A stretch of 64,000 nt of DNA from Candidatus Bathyarchaeota archaeon (GCA_012515445.1 JAAYYI010000033.1:10-64009); one strand, 5' to 3'. Counted from the stretch's first letter, positions 35,358-48,620 are shown. Notes: generated by a model not told the origin, from the sequence alone. Program-made: numbers and translations.

Positions 35358-36437
35358 CTATCCTAATCTCCCTATGTTTATTCCACGTACCTTTTTCCTG
35401 AACTCGCTACTTTCCTTGATGAGTGAACCCATATTTTTGGATGTTACTATTTGAACCTTCGGCAAGCAGTCAGGGTAAAGCGTGGTTAATTCTGCCAGTA
35501 TGGCTGGGTCTACGTCTGCTTTTTTGAGTGCCTCTATGCTCCAGTTTTCGATTGCTTTGATAGCGGCTTGTTTGCCGTGCTTGCAGAAGATGTCGGCTAA
35601 AGTGGCGGTTATGAGGTTGCTCTCGGATTGCACCGCGACTTCGGCTGCCTTGATTGCGTAGCTGTTGCCGTTGAATGAAACGGATAAACCGCCTTTGTTT
35701 CGTACTAGCTGGAATGCTTCGACGTCGGTTATGCTATCGCCAACGTACATGGCATTCTCAAATTTGGCGCCAAGCTTTTTGGCGGCGTCGCGGATGGATT
35801 CAGCTTTCTGCTCCCCGCCGACCGTAACTACATCAGTCAACAGTTTCCCGACTGTCATCTTGGGGATTTCTGACCAGAAAATCTCATCTAAGCGCTGCAG
35901 TAGCGTCTGGTCGCAGTCACAAAAGTTCTCTATACTGTTTATGCCTGAGATGTCGATTGTGCGCATGTGGGCGATTTCCTGCGCCATTTCTCTAAGCGTT
36001 TCTTTCTCGTCTACCGTTATGGGGGCTTGGTCGAGGCTTAACCGAGTGCAGTAAGTATTCTGGAATGGGAAATCGGTTGCCTTGCACAGCGAGCGGATGT
36101 AGTGCTCGTAGCTTGTGCTCACAATGTATGAATCGGCGAGGCGCTGGACATGGGCAAGTGTGGTTTTGGTGTCTTTAATTAATACGATGTTTTGCTGGCT
36201 GAACTCTTCCATCTGGCGGTCGGTTACGCCGTAAGCTTTGAAGAAGGGCAGAATCAGCTTTAGTGTGGTGCCTGCAGTGTAGCCCGGTTTTTGAACAATA
36301 TCGGCGAGGACGTCGTCGTATTTGCTGATATTGGCAAAAAGCCGGTCGCCGCTCGGGATGAAATGTTCGGCTAACTCGAACGCATTATCGTTTTTGCTAA
36401 TTGGGCCTTCGCAGTCGGAGATGAAGAGGCGCTTCAA
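35358..36437 (-). CDS. HAD-superfamily-like protein (EhaR-like family)
   Basis: 359-aa ORF. N-terminal FISDCEGPISKNDNAFE and the late YVGDSITD motif resemble proteins annotated as energy-converting hydrogenase A subunit R. This assignment is from memory. Confidence 0.4.
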   Translation of the reverse strand: MKRLFISDCEGPISKNDNAFELAEHFIPSGDRLFANISKYDDVLADIVQKPGYTAGTTLKLILPFFKAYGVTDRQMEEFSQQNIVLIKDTKTTLAHVQRLADSYIVSTSYEHYIRSLCKATDFPFQNTYCTRLSLDQAPITVDEKETLREMAQEIAHMRTIDISGINSIENFCDCDQTLLQRLDEIFWSEIPKMTVGKLLTDVVTVGGEQKAESIRDAAKKLGAKFENAMYVGDSITDVEAFQLVRNKGGLSVSFNGNSYAIKAAEVAVQSESNLITATLADIFCKHGKQAAIKAIENWSIEALKKADVDPAILAELTTLYPDCLPKVQIVTSKNMGSLIKESSEFRKKVRGINIGRLG

Positions 36438-37849
36438 GCCTTCCTCAGCTGCTCCATCTTCTTGATGCTTTTTGCGATGTGATCTTTGGCTGCGACGTCG
36501 GTGCGGTTCCAGAGTGCTCCGCCGGTGATGGCTTTGGCGCCTTCTTGGCTGATGGTGCGGGCTTCCTCTATGTCTTTGCCGATTCCGAGGATACCGATAA
36601 CACGGGATTTCAATGCGTAATTCTTGCCGTCTCTTAGCTCCATTGATCCGGGGTAGATGCGGATTTTATCGCCGTACTTCTTGCTGAGTGCTTCTGCTTT
36701 GGAGAGGTCAACTGGGCCGCCGACTGCTGCTCTGTCCAGCTTGCCTGCGTGGACTTTGCTGTATCCGCCATAATCAGGCGGCACTTTGTAGGTTAAAACT
36801 GTGGCTGACTTGTGCATTTCGACGCTTGTTAGGTTGCCGTCAATCATTCTTAGGCATACGTCTGCGAAGTCGTCTTTGATTACTGGGAGAAGGTTCATGA
36901 TTTCCGGGTCGCCGGGTCGGCTGTTAATCTCCAAAATTTTGATGCCTTTGCCTGTATGCATAAACGCGAGGTATAGTGGGACTCCGCGCAATGCGGTGTC
37001 ATCGGGGATTTTTTTGCGCCAGCCCTTGAAGACCTTCTCTGCTAATGCAAGTTCGGCTTCTCGGTCGGCTGCTGTAAGGAAGGGTAAGTAATCTTTGGCG
37101 TCTTTGTAGGAGCCCATGCCGCCGGTGTTTGGTCCGCGGTCGTCGTCGAATGCGCGTTTGTAGTCGCGAGTGTCGGGGGGCGGGATGAAGTGTTTACCGT
37201 CGCAGAACCCCATGCAGCTTGATTCTTCGCCGGGCACTTTTTCCTCGAGGATAACTGCGCCGTATTTGAAGTTGGATAAGAAGTGTTCCCAGAGTTGCTC
37301 TCGGGTGGTGAAGTGGTCGCCCCAGACGCCCACGCCTTTTCCCAGCGCGGGTTTATCGGGTTTAACTGCCACTTGGTTATCGAGCTCATCTAGCCACCTG
37401 TAAACTGCAGATTTAGCTTCAGCTTCAGACTTGTACTGGGCTGGGTCGAAAACTTTGAATCTTGGATTAGCCTCGGGTGCGATTTCCTCGAAAAGTAGGC
37501 GCTGGGCTACTTTGCTCTCTTCAATTGCATAGGCTTTTTTGGGGCAGATGACTGGTATGCCGACTTTGGCTTCGATCAAGTCTCGGATGCCCTTAATGAT
37601 GGGGTTCTCGGATCCTACAAGCACGAAGTCGAGATCGGTTTTATTGGCTTCGGCGAAGCGGCAGATTTCGTTAACGTCTAAGCTTGGAATAACCGCGTGT
37701 TTTGCGGCATGTTTGGCGTTGTAGGGGTTGCATTGCTTGTCAGCGACGTAGAGTTGCACGTTGTGGTTTTTGCTTCTAAGAAGAGTGTCAGCCATAGCGA
37801 CTTCTCGTGCGCCGTAAGAAACCAGTAGTACTCCCAGTTTATCCATCAA
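36434..37849 (-). CDS. purD: Phosphoribosylamine--glycine ligase (GAR synthetase), long archaeal form
   Basis: 471-aa ORF with ATP-grasp layout and PurD-like motifs (GPNTGGMGSY, EINSRPGDPE). It sits between purF and the HAD-like gene, with a 4-nt overlap. Confidence 0.85.
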   Translation of the reverse strand: MMDKLGVLLVSYGAREVAMADTLLRSKNHNVQLYVADKQCNPYNAKHAAKHAVIPSLDVNEICRFAEANKTDLDFVLVGSENPIIKGIRDLIEAKVGIPVICPKKAYAIEESKVAQRLLFEEIAPEANPRFKVFDPAQYKSEAEAKSAVYRWLDELDNQVAVKPDKPALGKGVGVWGDHFTTREQLWEHFLSNFKYGAVILEEKVPGEESSCMGFCDGKHFIPPPDTRDYKRAFDDDRGPNTGGMGSYKDAKDYLPFLTAADREAELALAEKVFKGWRKKIPDDTALRGVPLYLAFMHTGKGIKILEINSRPGDPEIMNLLPVIKDDFADVCLRMIDGNLTSVEMHKSATVLTYKVPPDYGGYSKVHAGKLDRAAVGGPVDLSKAEALSKKYGDKIRIYPGSMELRDGKNYALKSRVIGILGIGKDIEEARTISQEGAKAITGGALWNRTDVAAKDHIAKSIKKMEQLRKA

Positions 37850-37902: not shown

Positions 37903-39384
37903 TTACGGCTGAATCTCTTCGTTCTCGTAGATTCTGCCTTTCTCCTCATATCCTTGCTGGAAGCGCCGCTTCATTGCGTCAGCGATTTTCTGTGCACAGG
38001 GTGTCGGGTACTTGCCGGTTATGCAGGCCAAGCAGAGTTCATCCGTTTTTTTGCCTGTAGCCTCTACTAGAGCTTCGATTGACTGGTAGCAGACACCGTC
38101 GGCACCGATGATTTTTGCGATTTCCTCTGCGTTGTGGCGTGAACCGACGAGTTGGCCGTAGCTGGACATGTCGATGCCGTAGAAGCATGGGCCGATGATA
38201 CGTGGGAAAGTCACGAACACGTAAACTTTCTTCGCGCCTGCCTGACGCATCTTTTCGATGATTACTTTGGTTGTGTCTCCGCGGACGATACTGTCCTCGG
38301 TTATGATGACGCTTTTACCTGCGACTTTGGAGCCTAAAATGTTGATTTTTTTGTCGATGGTTGAGTAGCGTTCAGCGTTTAGCAGGATAAACGCGCGTTC
38401 AGTTACATAGCGGTGGCGCCTTGAGCAGCGTTCCCAGCGGAGTCCTGAAGCTTCATGCACGCCCATCGCGGAGTCGTCGCCTGTTTCGGGAACCGACATG
38501 ATTATGTCGCATTCCTTAACGACGTCTTGGTACTCTTTCACTGTGTTGCGCCCGAATTGCTCACGTATTTCATAGACGTATTTGCCGTTGAAAATAGAGT
38601 CGGGACGTGCAAAATATGCGAATTCAAACGCGCAGAAAGCGTGTTTGGGGTTTTCGATTACTTGGATTCGTTTAAAGCCGTCTTTGGTTGCGATAGCGAG
38701 TTCGCCGGGGTTTAACTCGAAATCCCGTACAAAGCTGTTCATGTCCAAGCTGACGGTTTCAGAGGAAAACGCTAAAGTTTTAGTGTTGGGGTCATGTCCG
38801 GCACACAGCGGTTTAATGCCGTGCGGGTCTTTGAAGGCAAAGAATTCTCCGTTTCCGGTTATGCCTGTGACGCTGAATGCTCCGTCGAGGCTTTCCATGA
38901 CTCCTTTTGCCGCGGCCACTATGTCTTTGCTCTGCTTGTAGCCAAGCAGGAACTTGTGACAAACGAGGTCTGAGTCGCAGTTGTAAATGAAATCCTTAAA
39001 GTTGTCTTCCATCTCTTTTTTGAGTGGCTGAGTGTTAACGATGTTGCCGTTGAATGATAGTGCTACGGTTACTCCGCCCATTGAGGCGGTAAAAGGCTGG
39101 GTTCCTTGAACGATGGATACGTCGTCGCATTTTCCTGATGTAGTGTAGCGGACGTTTCCGATGCCGACTGAGCCTGGGAGCCTAGCGAACCATTCGTTGA
39201 TTGCGTTGCCCTTGACTTTCGGTACTAGGTCCAGGTTCTTGTATGAGAAGAATTGTCCATTATGGAATGTGAGGAAGCCATGTGATTGGTGGCCTCGGTG
39301 ATTCTGAGCTCTTAGTCCCCAGTAAACATAGGGGAAAACTGGTTGATTTTCGAAGTTTATTGCTCCAAATATGCCGCAGCCCGT
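37903..39384 (-). CDS. purF: Amidophosphoribosyltransferase (start proposed at ACG, plus-strand 39382-39384; first ATG is 39081)
   Basis: Upstream of the first ATG the open frame encodes GCGIFGA (the Ntn Cys nucleophile), LRAQNHRGHQSHGF and GIGNVRYTTSG. The PRTase motif VIITEDSIVRGDT lies downstream. Confidence 0.9.
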   Translation of the reverse strand, partial: TGCGIFGAINFENQPVFPYVYWGLRAQNHRGHQSHGFLTFHNGQFFSYKNLDLVPKVKGNAINEWFARLPGSVGIGNVRYTTSGKCDDVSIVQGTQPFTASMGGVTVALSFNGNIVNTQPLKKEMEDNFKDFIYNCDSDLVCHKFLLGYKQSKDIVAAAKGVMESLDGAFSVTGITGNGEFFAFKDPHGIKPLCAGHDPNTKTLAFSSETVSLDMNSFVRDFELNPGELAIATKDGFKRIQVIENPKHAFCAFEFAYFARPDSIFNGKYVYEIREQFGRNTVKEYQDVVKECDIIMSVPETGDDSAMGVHEASGLRWERCSRRHRYVTERAFILLNAERYSTIDKKINILGSKVAGKSVIITEDSIVRGDTTKVIIEKMRQAGAKKVYVFVTFPRIIGPCFYGIDMSSYGQLVGSRHNAEEIAKIIGADGVCYQSIEALVEATGKKTDELCLACITGKYPTPCAQKIADAMKRRFQQGYEEKGRIYENEEIQP

Positions 39385-39590
39385 GTTCTGGTCCCTTCTA
39401 GCCTTGAATGCAACAGTAGTAAAAGAGGAGGTTTATCAGCTTTTAGTACAAATTTAACTATAAGTCATGGTTTTTTTAACAGCAATCAGACTTACCTGAC
39501 TAAATTCGGGCGACGAGATATTTCCTTATTAGACGATAAGTGGCAACAATTCATTATTTTCTGGTTTCGAAGTTTACTATAGCTTCTGCT

Positions 39591-39624
39591 GCTCTCAAGC
39601 GACCCCCTCCCTTATTTAAAGCGG
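39591..39624. repeat. Mosaic repeat, short copy F (C-rich/TATA-like module)
   Basis: GCTCTCAAGCGACCCCCTCCCTTATTTAAAGCGG lies in the divergent purF / TIR-like gene region, about 55 nt upstream of ATG 39679. Confidence 0.6.
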
Positions 39625-39678
39625 CAGAACTTGCACAACATTTTACTGCATTAACCACGACATAGGTCACTGAGCATT

Positions 39679-40512
39679 ATGCAGACGCCCAAATACCACA
39701 TTTACCTCGCATACGCCGAAGCAGACAAATCCGGCTTCCGATTCAACATCACACAAGAAGAGCTGCAGCGCACCTTCGCCGAACCCATCAACGAGGGCAA
39801 ACAATTCTGGTTCTTGGGCAGACTCCTAAATCCCATGAAAATCGCCAAGGTCCTAATTTTTTGGTCCTATGAGGAAGCGAACATGCTTGACTTGCCCAGC
39901 AACGAAAGCATCGTCGTCGAGAAGGACAAAAAATACGTGGTTGAATCCATAGAGAGGGGCAAAGTTAAAGGCGCCTATTTGTGCACGGACAAATTCTTGG
40001 CTAAACCCCAAACTGTGGCAGCGCCTACAGGGGCAACTTTTTCTGGTAAGCGTCGTGTTCTAATCGTCTCCGGCACCGACGATGCCATGAAGCAGAAGCT
40101 GACAAAAGCGCTGGGCAAACTCCTGCTTGTGCCGGTGGTGCTGTGCGAGGAGCCGGGGCATGGTAGAAAAATTGTGGAGCGCTTCACCGCCGCATACGCC
40201 GACGTTGGCCTAGCAGTGGTGCTGCTGTCACCAGACGACTACGTCTACGCCAAAAGTGAGCAACCGACCAAACGAAAACTAAAACCCCGCCAGGACGTCG
40301 TATTTGAACTTGGCTACCTGCTCGGTAAACTGGGCAAAGAAAAGGTGCTGGTTCTCTATAGGGAGTCGGAGAAAGGCGAGTTCGAAGTTAACACTGACTT
40401 CGAGGGCGTAACCTCCGCGCCGTTCGACAGGCTTGACAGCTGGAAACTGGCGCTTCTGCGCGGGCTACTCGGCAACGGCTACCAAGTTGAGGGCGACAGA
40501 ATCCTAAAATAA
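39679..40512 (+). CDS. Two-domain protein: unknown N-terminal domain + TIR-like nucleotide-binding domain (Cap12/PycTIR-type, PF10137-like)
   Basis: 277-aa ORF. The C-terminal half has RVLIVSGTDD, VVLLSPDD and RQDVVFELGYLLGKLGKEKVLVL, matching the recalled signature of the TIR-like family. Confidence 0.65.
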   Translation: MQTPKYHIYLAYAEADKSGFRFNITQEELQRTFAEPINEGKQFWFLGRLLNPMKIAKVLIFWSYEEANMLDLPSNESIVVEKDKKYVVESIERGKVKGAYLCTDKFLAKPQTVAAPTGATFSGKRRVLIVSGTDDAMKQKLTKALGKLLLVPVVLCEEPGHGRKIVERFTAAYADVGLAVVLLSPDDYVYAKSEQPTKRKLKPRQDVVFELGYLLGKLGKEKVLVLYRESEKGEFEVNTDFEGVTSAPFDRLDSWKLALLRGLLGNGYQVEGDRILK

Positions 40513-40538
40513 CCCCTGACGGTTTCAGATAGCAGCGC

Positions 40539-40614
40539 GCGGTTGTAGTCTAGCTCGGTAGGACTCCAGCTTCCCAAGCTGGCTACCCGGGTTCAAATCC
40601 CGGCAACCGCACCA
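40539..40614 (+). tRNA. tRNA-Gly (anticodon CCC), CCA encoded
   Basis: A cloverleaf was folded by hand. The acceptor stem is GCGGTTG/CAACCGC and the D stem GTCT/GGAC. The anticodon stem CCAGC/GCTGG carries loop TTCCCAA, and the T stem CCGGG/CCCGG carries loop TTCAAAT. Discriminator A is followed by CCA. Confidence 0.9.
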
Positions 40615-40763
40615 AATTATACATTAAATGCGTAGTTCTGCATTTTACTAACGCACACTTTTCAAGTGATGTCCAACCCGCAACTGATTCTTGCTCGTTA
40701 TGGATGCTTTTATATTTCGTGCTGGAGCTAATTCGGTTAATAGACATTCGGGAGAGACTATGG

Positions 40764-42080
40764 TTGAATAAAACAGCAAAAACACTTTCAATTCTTGTAA
40801 TCAGCGTCTTATGCCTGTCCATCTTCACCTCATCCGCAGCGGCGGGAACCACGGGGTTATGGATATACGGCGGAGACAAATACGACATGGCAATCGCCAA
40901 CATGGCCACCATGGATGGCAGCCACGTACTAGTAGGCTGCACACAATCCTACGGTTCATTAGCCGACGACCTATGGCTTTTCAAAGTAGCAGGCGACGGC
41001 TCTACAACATGGAGCAAGCACTACGGTGGTGAAGGCAACGAATCTGGCTTTAATGTTATCACAACAGTCGACGGTGGATATGCAGTAATCGGCGCCACAA
41101 CCTCATATGGTGCAGGCGAAGAAGACATCTGGCTGGTTAAAACAGACTCGGAGGGCAATATGCAGTGGAACCAAACCTACGGCGGCTTATACGACGACGA
41201 AGGCTGGATGCTAATCCAAACCAGCGACGGCGGCTACCTCATCACAGGCTTAATCTGCACTTCTGAAGGCATAGGGGACGGTTGCCTAATAAAAACAGAC
41301 TCATCCGGCAATCTGGAATGGCAGAAAACCTACGGTGGAGCAGGCGACGAAGGCTTTTACGGCATAACCAAATCCTCCGAAGGCGGCTACATCCTAGCTG
41401 GATACACAAATTCAACTGGCGCTGGCAAGTGCGACGTTTGGCTAGTAAAGGTAAGTGCCTCAGGTACCGAGCAGTGGGCTAAAACCTACGGCGGCTCAGA
41501 AGACGATTACGGGTATATCGCTTTTGAAACCGAAACAGACTTCGTCGTTGACTGCACAACCTACTCTTACGGCGCAGGCGAAGCAGATGTTTGGCTGCTT
41601 AAAGTCGACGCTATGGGCGGTTTAATGTGGAACTACACCTATGGTGGACCAGAAGACGACCATGGCTGGTACGGCGCAAAAACCACCGACGGCTTCGCAC
41701 TTGGCGGCTACACCTACTCTTATGGGGTAAACGGTAACGCTGCTGCTTGGCTCATAAAAGTAGACATAAACGGCATGACTATGTGGAACCAAACCTATGG
41801 GTCAGCAGCCAAAGACTTCTACGGTTGGGCGGTAACGCAGACAAGCGACGGTGGCTATGCAATTTCCGGCGAAGTATTACCAGTAGATGTCGATACATGC
41901 GACGCTTTCCTAGTCATCACCGACGAGAACGGCGATGCATTGATTCCTGAAGACACCGCCAATACCGAGCTTATCCCACTATGGGCTGTCGGCGCGATCG
42001 TTGCGGTTATAATCGTTGTTTTGCTGGTTGTTGTTCTGCTTATGCGGCGAAAACCCAAGCAGCCGCAACCAACACAATAA
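40764..42080 (+). CDS. Secreted 7-repeat (beta-propeller-like) surface protein with C-terminal TM anchor
   Basis: A TTG 40764 start gives the signal peptide MNKTAKTLSILVISVLCLSIFTSSAAA. There are seven repeats of about 50 aa (W.KTYGG..D.G....T.DGGY...G.T.S.G.G..D.WL.K.D..G...W). The C-terminus is a TM helix plus RRKPKQ. Confidence 0.6.
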   Translation: MNKTAKTLSILVISVLCLSIFTSSAAAGTTGLWIYGGDKYDMAIANMATMDGSHVLVGCTQSYGSLADDLWLFKVAGDGSTTWSKHYGGEGNESGFNVITTVDGGYAVIGATTSYGAGEEDIWLVKTDSEGNMQWNQTYGGLYDDEGWMLIQTSDGGYLITGLICTSEGIGDGCLIKTDSSGNLEWQKTYGGAGDEGFYGITKSSEGGYILAGYTNSTGAGKCDVWLVKVSASGTEQWAKTYGGSEDDYGYIAFETETDFVVDCTTYSYGAGEADVWLLKVDAMGGLMWNYTYGGPEDDHGWYGAKTTDGFALGGYTYSYGVNGNAAAWLIKVDINGMTMWNQTYGSAAKDFYGWAVTQTSDGGYAISGEVLPVDVDTCDAFLVITDENGDALIPEDTANTELIPLWAVGAIVAVIIVVLLVVVLLMRRKPKQPQPTQ

Positions 42081-47441: not shown

Positions 47442-48620
47442 ATGAATCGAACAGGCAAATATTTGTTCACATCCGAATCCGTCGGAGAAGGTCACCCAGA
47501 CAAAGTAGCAGACCAAATCTCTGACAGCGTCCTAGACGCAATCTTCAGCCAGGATCCAAAGGCACACGTTGACTGCGAAACCCTCGTCATGCAGGGCACA
47601 GTCATGATCACTGGCCAAATCACCACAAAAGCAAGCATAAACATCCCAAACATCGTCCGAGGCACCCTAAAAGACATAGGCTTCGACAACGCCAAAGACG
47701 GCTTAGACTGGGAAACATGCGGTATCCTAGTCTCACTAACTGAGCAATCCCCAGACATCGCTATGGGTGTACAGGAATCTAACGGTAAAGAGCAGGGAGC
47801 AGGCGACCAAGGAATGGTTTTCGGTTACGCCTCAAACGAAACCAAGGAACTGATGCCGCTGCCAATCTTGCTTGCTCACAGACTCGTAAAACGCTTAGCC
47901 ACCGTCCGCCACGATGGTACAATGCCATACTTGCGCCCAGACTGCAAATCCCAAGTAACAGTCGAATACGAAAACGGCAAACCAAAATGCGTCAAAACAG
48001 TCGTCATCGCAGCTCAGAACAACGGCTCAGTTGAAGACTCAGTTCTCAAAAAGCAAATCATCGACCAAGTCATCAAAAAAATAATCCCCGCCAACATGCT
48101 TGCGGCAGACGTGAACTACGTCATTAACGGCACAGGCCGCTTCGTCATCGGCGGAACACTAGCAGACTCCGGCTTAACCGGTCGCAAAATCATCGTTGAC
48201 ACATACGGCGGTGTAGGCGCTCACGGCGGCGGATGCTTCAGCGGCAAAGACCCCTCAAAAGTGGACCGCAGCGGATGCTACATGGCACGCTACATCGCAA
48301 AGAACATTGTTGCAGCCGGCTTAGCAGATCAATGCCAAGTCCAAATCAGCTACGCCATCGGCGTCGCCAAACCAATCAGCGTACTAGTCGATACTAATGG
48401 CACTGGCAAAATCCCAGACGAGCAAATCCTCGACTTGGTCCAGAAGAACTTTGACATGACTCCATACGGTATCATCACAACACTCAACCTAAGAAGACCA
48501 ATCTACAAGAAAACCGCAGCTTTCGGTCACTTCGGCCGCGACGATGTCGAGTTCCCGTGGGAACGCTGTGACAAAGCAGAGATTCTCAAGAAAGCAGCAG
48601 CTGAATACAAGAAAGCATAA
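47442..48620 (+). CDS. metK: S-adenosylmethionine synthetase, bacterial/eukaryotic MetK type
   Basis: 392-aa [35 protein letters not shown] and [17 protein letters not shown] are near-identical to the bacterial MetK signatures. Confidence 0.95.

Follow-up and report, generated by a model that had tools for sequence, protein, structure and literature searches.

Where does translation of purF begin when its reading frame offers no canonical start codon? This question is raised by a stretch of 64,000 nucleotides (nt) from a Candidatus Bathyarchaeota archaeon (GCA_012515445.1, JAAYYI010000033.1:10-64009; hereafter the window), which encodes the amidophosphoribosyltransferase PurF on its minus strand. 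The purF frame follows two in-frame stops, TGA at 39436-39438 and TAA at 39433-39435, and ends at its own stop at 37903-37905. Between the TAA and the codon of the glutaminase nucleophile, a cysteine, lie 18 sense codons (ACC TCC TCT TTT ACT ACT GTT GCA TTC AAG GCT AGA AGG GAC CAG AAC ACG GGC), none of which is ATG, GTG, or TTG. A preliminary description of this sequence had correctly reported the open frame, the CGIFG motif, and the lack of a canonical start ahead of the cysteine, although it counted 17 upstream codons where there are 18. Its remark that a protein starting at the ATG at 39081 would drop the nucleophile also holds, the first canonical start being codon 100. On comparative grounds, we consider it probable, with good confidence, that the gene is intact, functional, and translated from the near-cognate ACG at 39382-39384, giving a product that would begin Met-Gly-Cys. 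The features on which the argument turns are listed here, with codons counted from the nucleophile (Cys = 1) and negative numbers for those preceding it.

37903-39384, minus strand: purF coding sequence, reinterpreted, with a proposed ACG start, 493 codons (Met-Gly-Cys...) and a stop; a Bacillus subtilis-type amidophosphoribosyltransferase with four Fe-S cysteines, aligned to PDB entry 1AO0 from Cys1.
39382-39384, minus strand: proposed start codon ACG, position −2 from the nucleophile Cys; the homologous codon is ATA, ATG, or ACG in 56 of 56 group-B loci (defined below), and in-frame stops stand at −3 or −4 in 11 relatives.
39376-39381, minus strand: Gly(−1) codon GGC and nucleophile Cys codon TGC (39376-39378), then GGC ATA TTT GGA, i.e. 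CGIFG.
39079-39081, minus strand: first ATG of the frame, Met100, an internal codon and not a start; the 99 codons before it are under purifying selection (ratio of nonsynonymous to synonymous substitution rates, dN/dS, 0.02-0.08).

The protein is recognizable as PurF from the cysteine onward. The NCBIfam model TIGR01134 (purF) is matched over its full length (1-432 of 432), its first position falling on the cysteine, residue 18 of the open frame, and chain residue 1 of mature B. subtilis PurF (1AO0) aligns with the same cysteine (E = 2e-71). Among solved structures it is closest to plant and B. subtilis PurF (6LBP, 1AO0, 1GPH; E about 1e-72). The TIGR01134 score of 316 bits falls below the curated equivalog cut-off of 350; taken with the end-to-end alignment and the best PDB matches, all of them PurF, this indicates a divergent archaeal branch rather than another family. 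The glutaminase motifs NHRGHQSHG and SFNGNIVN and the phosphoribosyl pyrophosphate (PRPP) loop ITEDSIVRGDT match the corresponding B. subtilis segments, and all four cysteines of the [4Fe-4S] cluster are kept within motifs aligned to 1AO0 (CafEFAYF, PCFYGID, and CLACITGKYP), at what we take to be C236, C382, C437, and C440 in B. subtilis numbering. In databases, its nearest proteins belong to Bathyarchaeia or 'Bathycorpusculum' metagenome-assembled genomes (MAGs).

A frame of this kind stands out in the window. Across 59 open reading frames (ORFs; stop to stop, at least 150 codons), the start-less 5′ part of purF is the longest, at 117 codons, and the second longest, at 92 codons, belongs to a shadow frame. 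None of the Pfam domains in nine other window ORFs begins before the first canonical start, a test that truncations of a few codons would escape. With no other real start-less gene in the window, the near-cognate start looks gene-specific.

The sequence derives from a MAG, and one T-to-C change would suffice to turn an ATG into this ACG. A sequencing or assembly error, or a decaying pseudogene complemented by another purF, could thus produce the same picture, and the preliminary description had itself raised both a masked ATG-initiated frame and a pseudogene with an intact second copy. Neither has a counterpart in the data. The string ACG-GGC-TGC is repeated in close relatives (NCBI GCA_030153525.1, Logan SRR404246 and SRR404247, and a 3.3-Mb ENA contig), with three independent assemblies from different projects carrying the ACG at 93-96% protein identity and a proportion of synonymous differences (pS) of 0.31-0.38; two more distant species, L002 and L003, also have ACG at −2. 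Over the 99 codons from the Cys to the first ATG, comparison with close relatives gives a proportion of nonsynonymous differences (pN) of 0.01-0.04 and the low dN/dS listed above, like the rest of the gene, which indicates that these codons are translated and selected. The catalytic and Fe-S residues are all intact, no second purF was found in the window, and the best 80 genome loci never share an assembly. We consider the chance of an error or a pseudogene to be negligible.

The same constraint bears on the reading that translation simply begins at the ATG at 39081, so that the 392-residue product lacks the glutaminase nucleophile and might be, say, an ammonia-dependent phosphoribosyltransferase. 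This start matches gene-caller predictions, and 44 of 120 related database proteins are truncated calls of this type, but such starts vary by genome and are set by the chance position of the first ATG, GTG, or TTG. Met100 lies inside the N-terminal nucleophile (Ntn) fold in the 1AO0 alignment, and the 99 codons ahead of it are constrained as strongly as those behind it. An initiation at Met100 is therefore exceedingly unlikely.

Loci were read upstream of the Cys codon in 80 sequences from species-representative genomes (the best 80) and 80 from metagenomes. Two N-terminal architectures emerged. Group A, the more distant Bathyarchaeia at about 60-70% identity, carries an ATG eight codons before the Cys and a propeptide M-G-E-x-L-K-I/E-A. 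Group B consists of the window and 55 relatives at 63-96% identity, which are without the group-A ATG and have Gly at −1. Across these 56 loci the −2 codon is ATA in 44, ACG in six, and ATG in six, with no ATT, ATC, or other Thr codon; only ATG and its single-base neighbours occur. Relatives with ATG at this position (L165 at 90% identity, L001, and L005) encode proteins starting MGCGIFG, and within the same sequence context at 89-90% identity the codon is ATG in L165 and ATA in L166-168. Of 51 distinct sequences, 45 have GGC for Gly(−1) and 47 have TGC for the Cys. The comparison of purF 5′ ends that the preliminary description had suggested thus finds ACG kept in close relatives and ATA or ATG elsewhere, and at the ACG that it proposed as the start of an M-G-C protein, some close relatives carry ATG and most of the others ATA. 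The scope is clade-wide, and the commonest −2 state is ATA, not ACG.

Codon usage at −2 differs where the position is internal. In group A the homologous codon is ATC in 13 loci, ATA in 10, ATG in two, and GAG in one, and Ile codon use at −2 separates the two groups with a Fisher p of 1e-7, a statistic that ignores phylogeny. Elsewhere in purF, each of 13 conserved Ile columns contains ATA, ATT, and ATC side by side. We also considered whether this lineage decodes AUA as Met and rejected the idea, since conserved Ile positions of purF itself commonly carry ATA. In a neighbour-joining tree without support values, the ACG lineages adjoin ATG lineages, which is consistent with a codon path ATA to ATG to ACG. 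Group A is basal in this tree, and its member L107 is sister to L111 and L024 of group B, so the group-A ATG may have been lost more than once.

Two of these loci have peculiarities of their own. L017 (DATGZD010000049.1), like protein P0108, stands in a record labelled Acidobacteriota ('Candidatus Sulfotelmatobacter sp.'), yet these records hold a typical group-B purF with the same upstream element and an ATA start, and the labels probably reflect mis-binning or contamination of those MAGs. In the long-read MAG MFD06085.bin.2.65 (L056 3001-3252), purF is broken after 84 codons downstream of a normal upstream region, more likely through an assembly indel than as a true pseudogene.

Could translation instead enter purF from a canonical start further upstream, either in the purF frame or out of it, by way of read-through or programmed frameshifting? 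In the +1 frame of the window, a TTG lies 35 nt upstream and is open to the Cys, and some relatives have an in-frame ATG or TTG at −12. However, the window contains no in-frame canonical start, and 40 of the 50 non-ATG group-B loci lack one from the upstream stop to the Cys. For 20 of the 56 group-B loci, namely L082 (94% identity) and 19 ATA loci, there is no canonical start in any of the three frames staying open to the Cys codon. In-frame stops interrupt the region immediately ahead of the −2 codon in 11 loci, at −3 in L016 and at −4 in L004, L006, L007, L017, L021, L056, L081, L090, L091, and L102; in L081, at 96% identity to the window, a TAG at −4 leaves only AAC-ACG-GGC before the Cys. 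In the L004 subclade the nucleotides of an upstream ATG are conserved but its frame is not, shifting with an A-run of four or five, and there is no conservation between −50 and −20. The in-frame stops, the loci without any start, and the A-run frame shifts together argue that upstream initiation, read-through, or frameshifting is not the general mechanism, and hence that the start is the −2 codon. As an explanation of the locus, an upstream canonical start is scarcely credible.

In several subclades, the nucleotides of an ATG recur about 31 nt before the −2 codon. This ATG is out of frame in L004, L007, L056, L090, and L082 (all at −37 from the Cys codon) and in L001 (−34), whereas other relatives, P0048 among them, have it in frame at −12. 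It may be a remnant or have another role, for example in the initiator region of a promoter.

For the window alone, a different non-canonical codon could be proposed, AAG at −9 or AGG at −6, giving a longer propeptide. The frame is open for 18 codons and both are single-base neighbours of AUG, but both lie within or upstream of the Shine-Dalgarno (SD)-like block described below, the upstream residues lack protein-level conservation, and the L081 frame is closed at −4. This proposal is very unlikely to be correct.

Initiation at the −2 codon is further favoured by a purine-rich signal ahead of it.

39392-39398, minus strand: SD-like purine block GAAGGGA, with its GGG ending 8 nt before the ACG.

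When 54 distinct group-B sequences are profiled for conservation without gaps, positions −50 to −20 carry almost no information; at −19 to −14, counted from the Cys codon, stands a block of purines, R R G G G R, 7-8 nt ahead of the −2 codon. This is the only conserved block from −50 to −10, and nothing else non-coding is conserved from the promoter-like box to the start. Downstream of the block, a spacer without conservation gives way to A-rich sequence at −9 to −7 and then to A-(T/C)-(A/G), GGC, and TGC, with three-base coding periodicity starting in the region of the −2 codon. Basal group-B loci have stronger purine blocks at the same place (GGGGGAG, GGGGAGGAG, and GTAGGAGTGG), and other window genes have GGAGG-like SD sites at similar spacing. 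The weak AAGGG at 8 nt spacing noted in the preliminary description therefore falls on a block conserved in relatives, and the succession of block, spacer, and start reads as the anatomy of an SD-led initiation site.

No conserved RNA structure was found at the start (RNAalifold, 30 relatives, −35 to +60; −1.96 kcal/mol, no compensatory pairs). This bears on a further alternative, that mRNA editing creates an AUG by C-to-U conversion at ACG and A-to-I conversion at AUA. Start codons of the ACG type are edited to AUG in plant organelles, but one clade would need two editing chemistries, no conserved structure surrounds the site, and we know of no mRNA editing of this kind in archaea. We regard editing as most improbable.

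How might a housekeeping gene have come to this arrangement? The region upstream of the SD-like block holds three further features.

39406-39411, minus strand: predicted transcription start region, about 22-24 nt past the box below, placed by spacing, for a 5′ leader of about 25 nt.
39431-39438, minus strand: TATA-like box TGATAAAC, which holds the in-frame TGA and TAA; nearly invariant in groups A and B, with the group-A ATG 23-26 nt after it.
39440-39480, minus strand: purF-specific upstream element GTTAAAAAAACCATGACTTATAGTTAAATTTGTACTAAAAG, conserved in about 80 loci of both groups and single-copy in the window.

The box TGATAAAC is a putative TATA box of the purF promoter. In group A, the ATG follows GATAA by 23-26 nt (mode 24) in 23 of 27 loci, and the intervening sequence is variable and has no SD. 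An ATG about 24 nt past the box is the geometry expected of an archaeal TATA box and a leaderless mRNA. In group B the box lies 37-51 nt (mode 47-48) from the −2 codon, which would give a leader of about 13-27 nt. Basal group-B loci retain the group-A spacing from box to −2 codon and have AGGGGGAG or AGGGGGAGCC where group A has ATGGGAGAG or ATGGGAGAGC. We lean, with moderate confidence, towards a history in which a leaderless ancestral mRNA lost its AUG eight codons upstream and initiation shifted, under the lead of an SD, to an Ile codon of the old propeptide. An ancestral propeptide MGEQLKIA would have lost its AUG, the former GGGAG(A/G) codons would have become the SD, and the Ile(−2) codon AUA would have become the start. 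We take the near-cognate arrangement to be ancestral to an entire clade of Bathyarchaeia. Alternatively, a TTAAAWWT box further upstream may be the TATA element, in which case group A would be leadered without an SD.

In all loci of both groups, the upstream element ends in AAAAG(C/T)TGATAAA (window 39431-39480). The element spans ~45 nt as GTYAAAAA-N3-CATG-CTTTTTAG-TTAAAWWTGTACTAAAAG, just upstream of the TGATAAA box (e.g. in L008, L013, and L107), has two GT-N-AAAA repeats, and is conserved across Bathyarchaeia whose PurF identity is only 60-85%. It may be a B recognition element, the operator of a purine regulator, or a second A/T-rich promoter box. A search of the window for further copies, as expected of a pur regulon operator, found none besides the purF copy. 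An RNA hairpin formed by the partial inverted repeat CTTTTTAG...CTAAAAG was rejected, since its arms change without compensation in several lineages, and an Rfam search of the whole window and of 39300-39700 (E up to 10) returned only a tRNA-Gly and a chance long non-coding RNA match, with no known leader RNA.

In the mechanism that we propose, a short leader of ~25 nt would let the weak SD-like GAAGGGA, 8 nt upstream, position the 30S subunit at the −2 codon. Initiator Met-tRNA would presumably pair there imperfectly, with a mismatch at the second codon position for ACG and at the third for AUA. The primary product would be Met-Gly-Cys-Gly-Ile-Phe..., as in the ATG-bearing relatives (MGCGIFG). 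Removal of Met-Gly, by methionine aminopeptidase and self-processing of the Ntn-amidotransferase type, would then expose Cys1, and the predicted mature N-terminal peptide, Cys first, is CGIFGAINFENQPVFPYVYWGLR.

Several observations count against this account. Support for it is comparative inference, drawn entirely from MAGs of uncultured organisms. At Ile7 both groups favour ATA, and synonymous sites of early codons are unusually conserved in general, which makes codon conservation at −2 weaker evidence than the stop-codon argument and not decisive alone. The neighbour-joining tree has no support values, and an in-frame ATG, GTG, or TTG further upstream exists in 10 of the 50 non-ATG relatives, where it could serve as the start. 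The window SD matches 4 of 5 positions of GGAGG, a consensus and not the 3′ end of this lineage's own 16S rRNA. Reviews accept only AUG, GUG, and UUG as archaeal starts, and Sulfolobus solfataricus aIF1 rejects AUU in vitro (PMC4705826). In E. coli, AUA initiates at 1-2% of the AUG level and other codons including ACG at 0.1-1%, with Met at the N-terminus (bioRxiv 10.1101/063800). Such poor initiation at ACG and AUA elsewhere implies either that little PurF translation is needed or that the lineage is unusually tolerant of these codons.

A regulatory meaning is tentative. ATG recurs in the clade without taking over and was seemingly replaced by ACG in the window's lineage, which is compatible with selection against a strong start. 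That the AUA or ACG start is a selected control point, or the outcome of lineage-specific relaxed start selection (e.g. through an altered aIF1 or initiator tRNA), is a conceivable but doubtful extension. If true, start-codon stringency would set the translation of the committed enzyme of the purine pathway, and AUA and ACG would be genuine archaeal start codons, affecting further genes that are now truncated in annotation.

The consequences for annotation are already visible. Among the 120 closest database protein clusters, 44 are truncated and begin past the Cys, 55 reach back to a start further upstream (with I-G before the Cys in 51, T-G in three, and M-G in one), and only 21 begin M-G-C. 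Gene finders thus miss the near-cognate purF start, and databases carry truncated or wrongly extended PurF. Purine synthesis in Bathyarchaeia may consequently be scored as defective in metabolic reconstructions, and gene finders need ATA and ACG options here.

Further observations concern the neighbourhood of purF.

36434-37849, minus strand: purD (GARS), which follows purF directly and probably shares its operon.

The order purF-purD-HAD hydrolase-FTR, with purF first, is the same in L082 and L084. On the other side, the interval between purF and tRNA-Gly(CCC) at 40539-40614 (window 39679-40614, plus strand) differs among close relatives. In the window it holds a 277-aa ORF whose same-sized counterpart, in the corresponding place in L081 (L081 1-2422), has a CAP12-PCTIR TIR domain; L081 also encodes an AAA_14/DUF4143 ATPase, and the interval holds a HepT/MNT toxin-antitoxin pair in L082 (1877-2519) and DUF433/DUF5615, flavodoxin, and glyoxalase genes in L084 (948-2861). 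It looks like a small, variable defence or toxin-antitoxin islet beside a tRNA gene. Further along the plus strand, 40704-42080 encodes a 458-aa protein with about seven repeats of the form 'GG..DD.g..v..T.DGGY...G.T.S.G.G..D.WLVKtD..G...W..tYGG', a C-terminal hydrophobic anchor, and a basic tail; it resembles a surface protein of archaea, from a repeat family that Bathyarchaeia commonly carry. An ORF at 47442-48620 (plus strand) matches the bacterial/eukaryotic-type S-adenosylmethionine synthetase domains PF00438, PF02772, and PF02773. Archaea usually have a distinct archaeal-type enzyme, and this gene may therefore be a horizontal acquisition.

A literature search found no report of a start other than AUG, GUG, or UUG for purF or in Bathyarchaeia. 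What we describe would extend near-cognate initiation, itself a known phenomenon, to a new archaeal form. It provides a well-supported comparative case of an essential archaeal gene initiated at AUA or ACG, against reviews that list AUG, GUG, and UUG only and a reported rejection of near-cognate codons by aIF1 (PMC4705826), and it outlines a plausible route by which a leaderless AUG is lost, initiation moves to an internal codon, and an SD is recruited from former coding sequence. The occurrence of ACG, ATA, and ATG in near-identical contexts also makes purF a test case for start-codon stringency in TACK archaea.

At the level of the enzyme, the closest known system is B. subtilis PurF (1AO0/1GPH), which shares the class, fold, cluster cysteines, and PRPP loop, and in which residues ahead of the Cys likewise need removal. 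B. subtilis PurF is made with an 11-residue propeptide that is removed in maturation; the window protein would have only Met-Gly, group A has eight residues, and it is the window gene that lacks a canonical start. In the E. coli-type enzyme (1ECB), with its Met-Cys N-terminus, the Cys also becomes residue 1 once the preceding residues are removed. E. coli PurF, however, has no Fe-S cluster, starts at ATG, and loses only its Met, to methionine aminopeptidase.

At the level of initiation, the nearest parallel is E. coli infC, encoding IF3, likewise a housekeeping gene, whose near-cognate start persists among relatives, follows an SD, and is decoded by initiator tRNA (background in PMC4705826). 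The infC start is AUU and serves IF3 autoregulation, whereas no such logic is evident for purF, whose codon alternates among AUA, ACG, and AUG and would be handled by the archaeal factors aIF1, aIF1A, and aIF2. Eukaryotic and viral ORFs with ACG or CUG starts, and near-cognate starts in E. coli, share with purF a single-base neighbour of AUG read as Met, with low expression relative to AUG. Those cases usually concern isoforms or reporters, whereas in purF the near-cognate codon would be the sole start of an essential enzyme, conserved across a clade.

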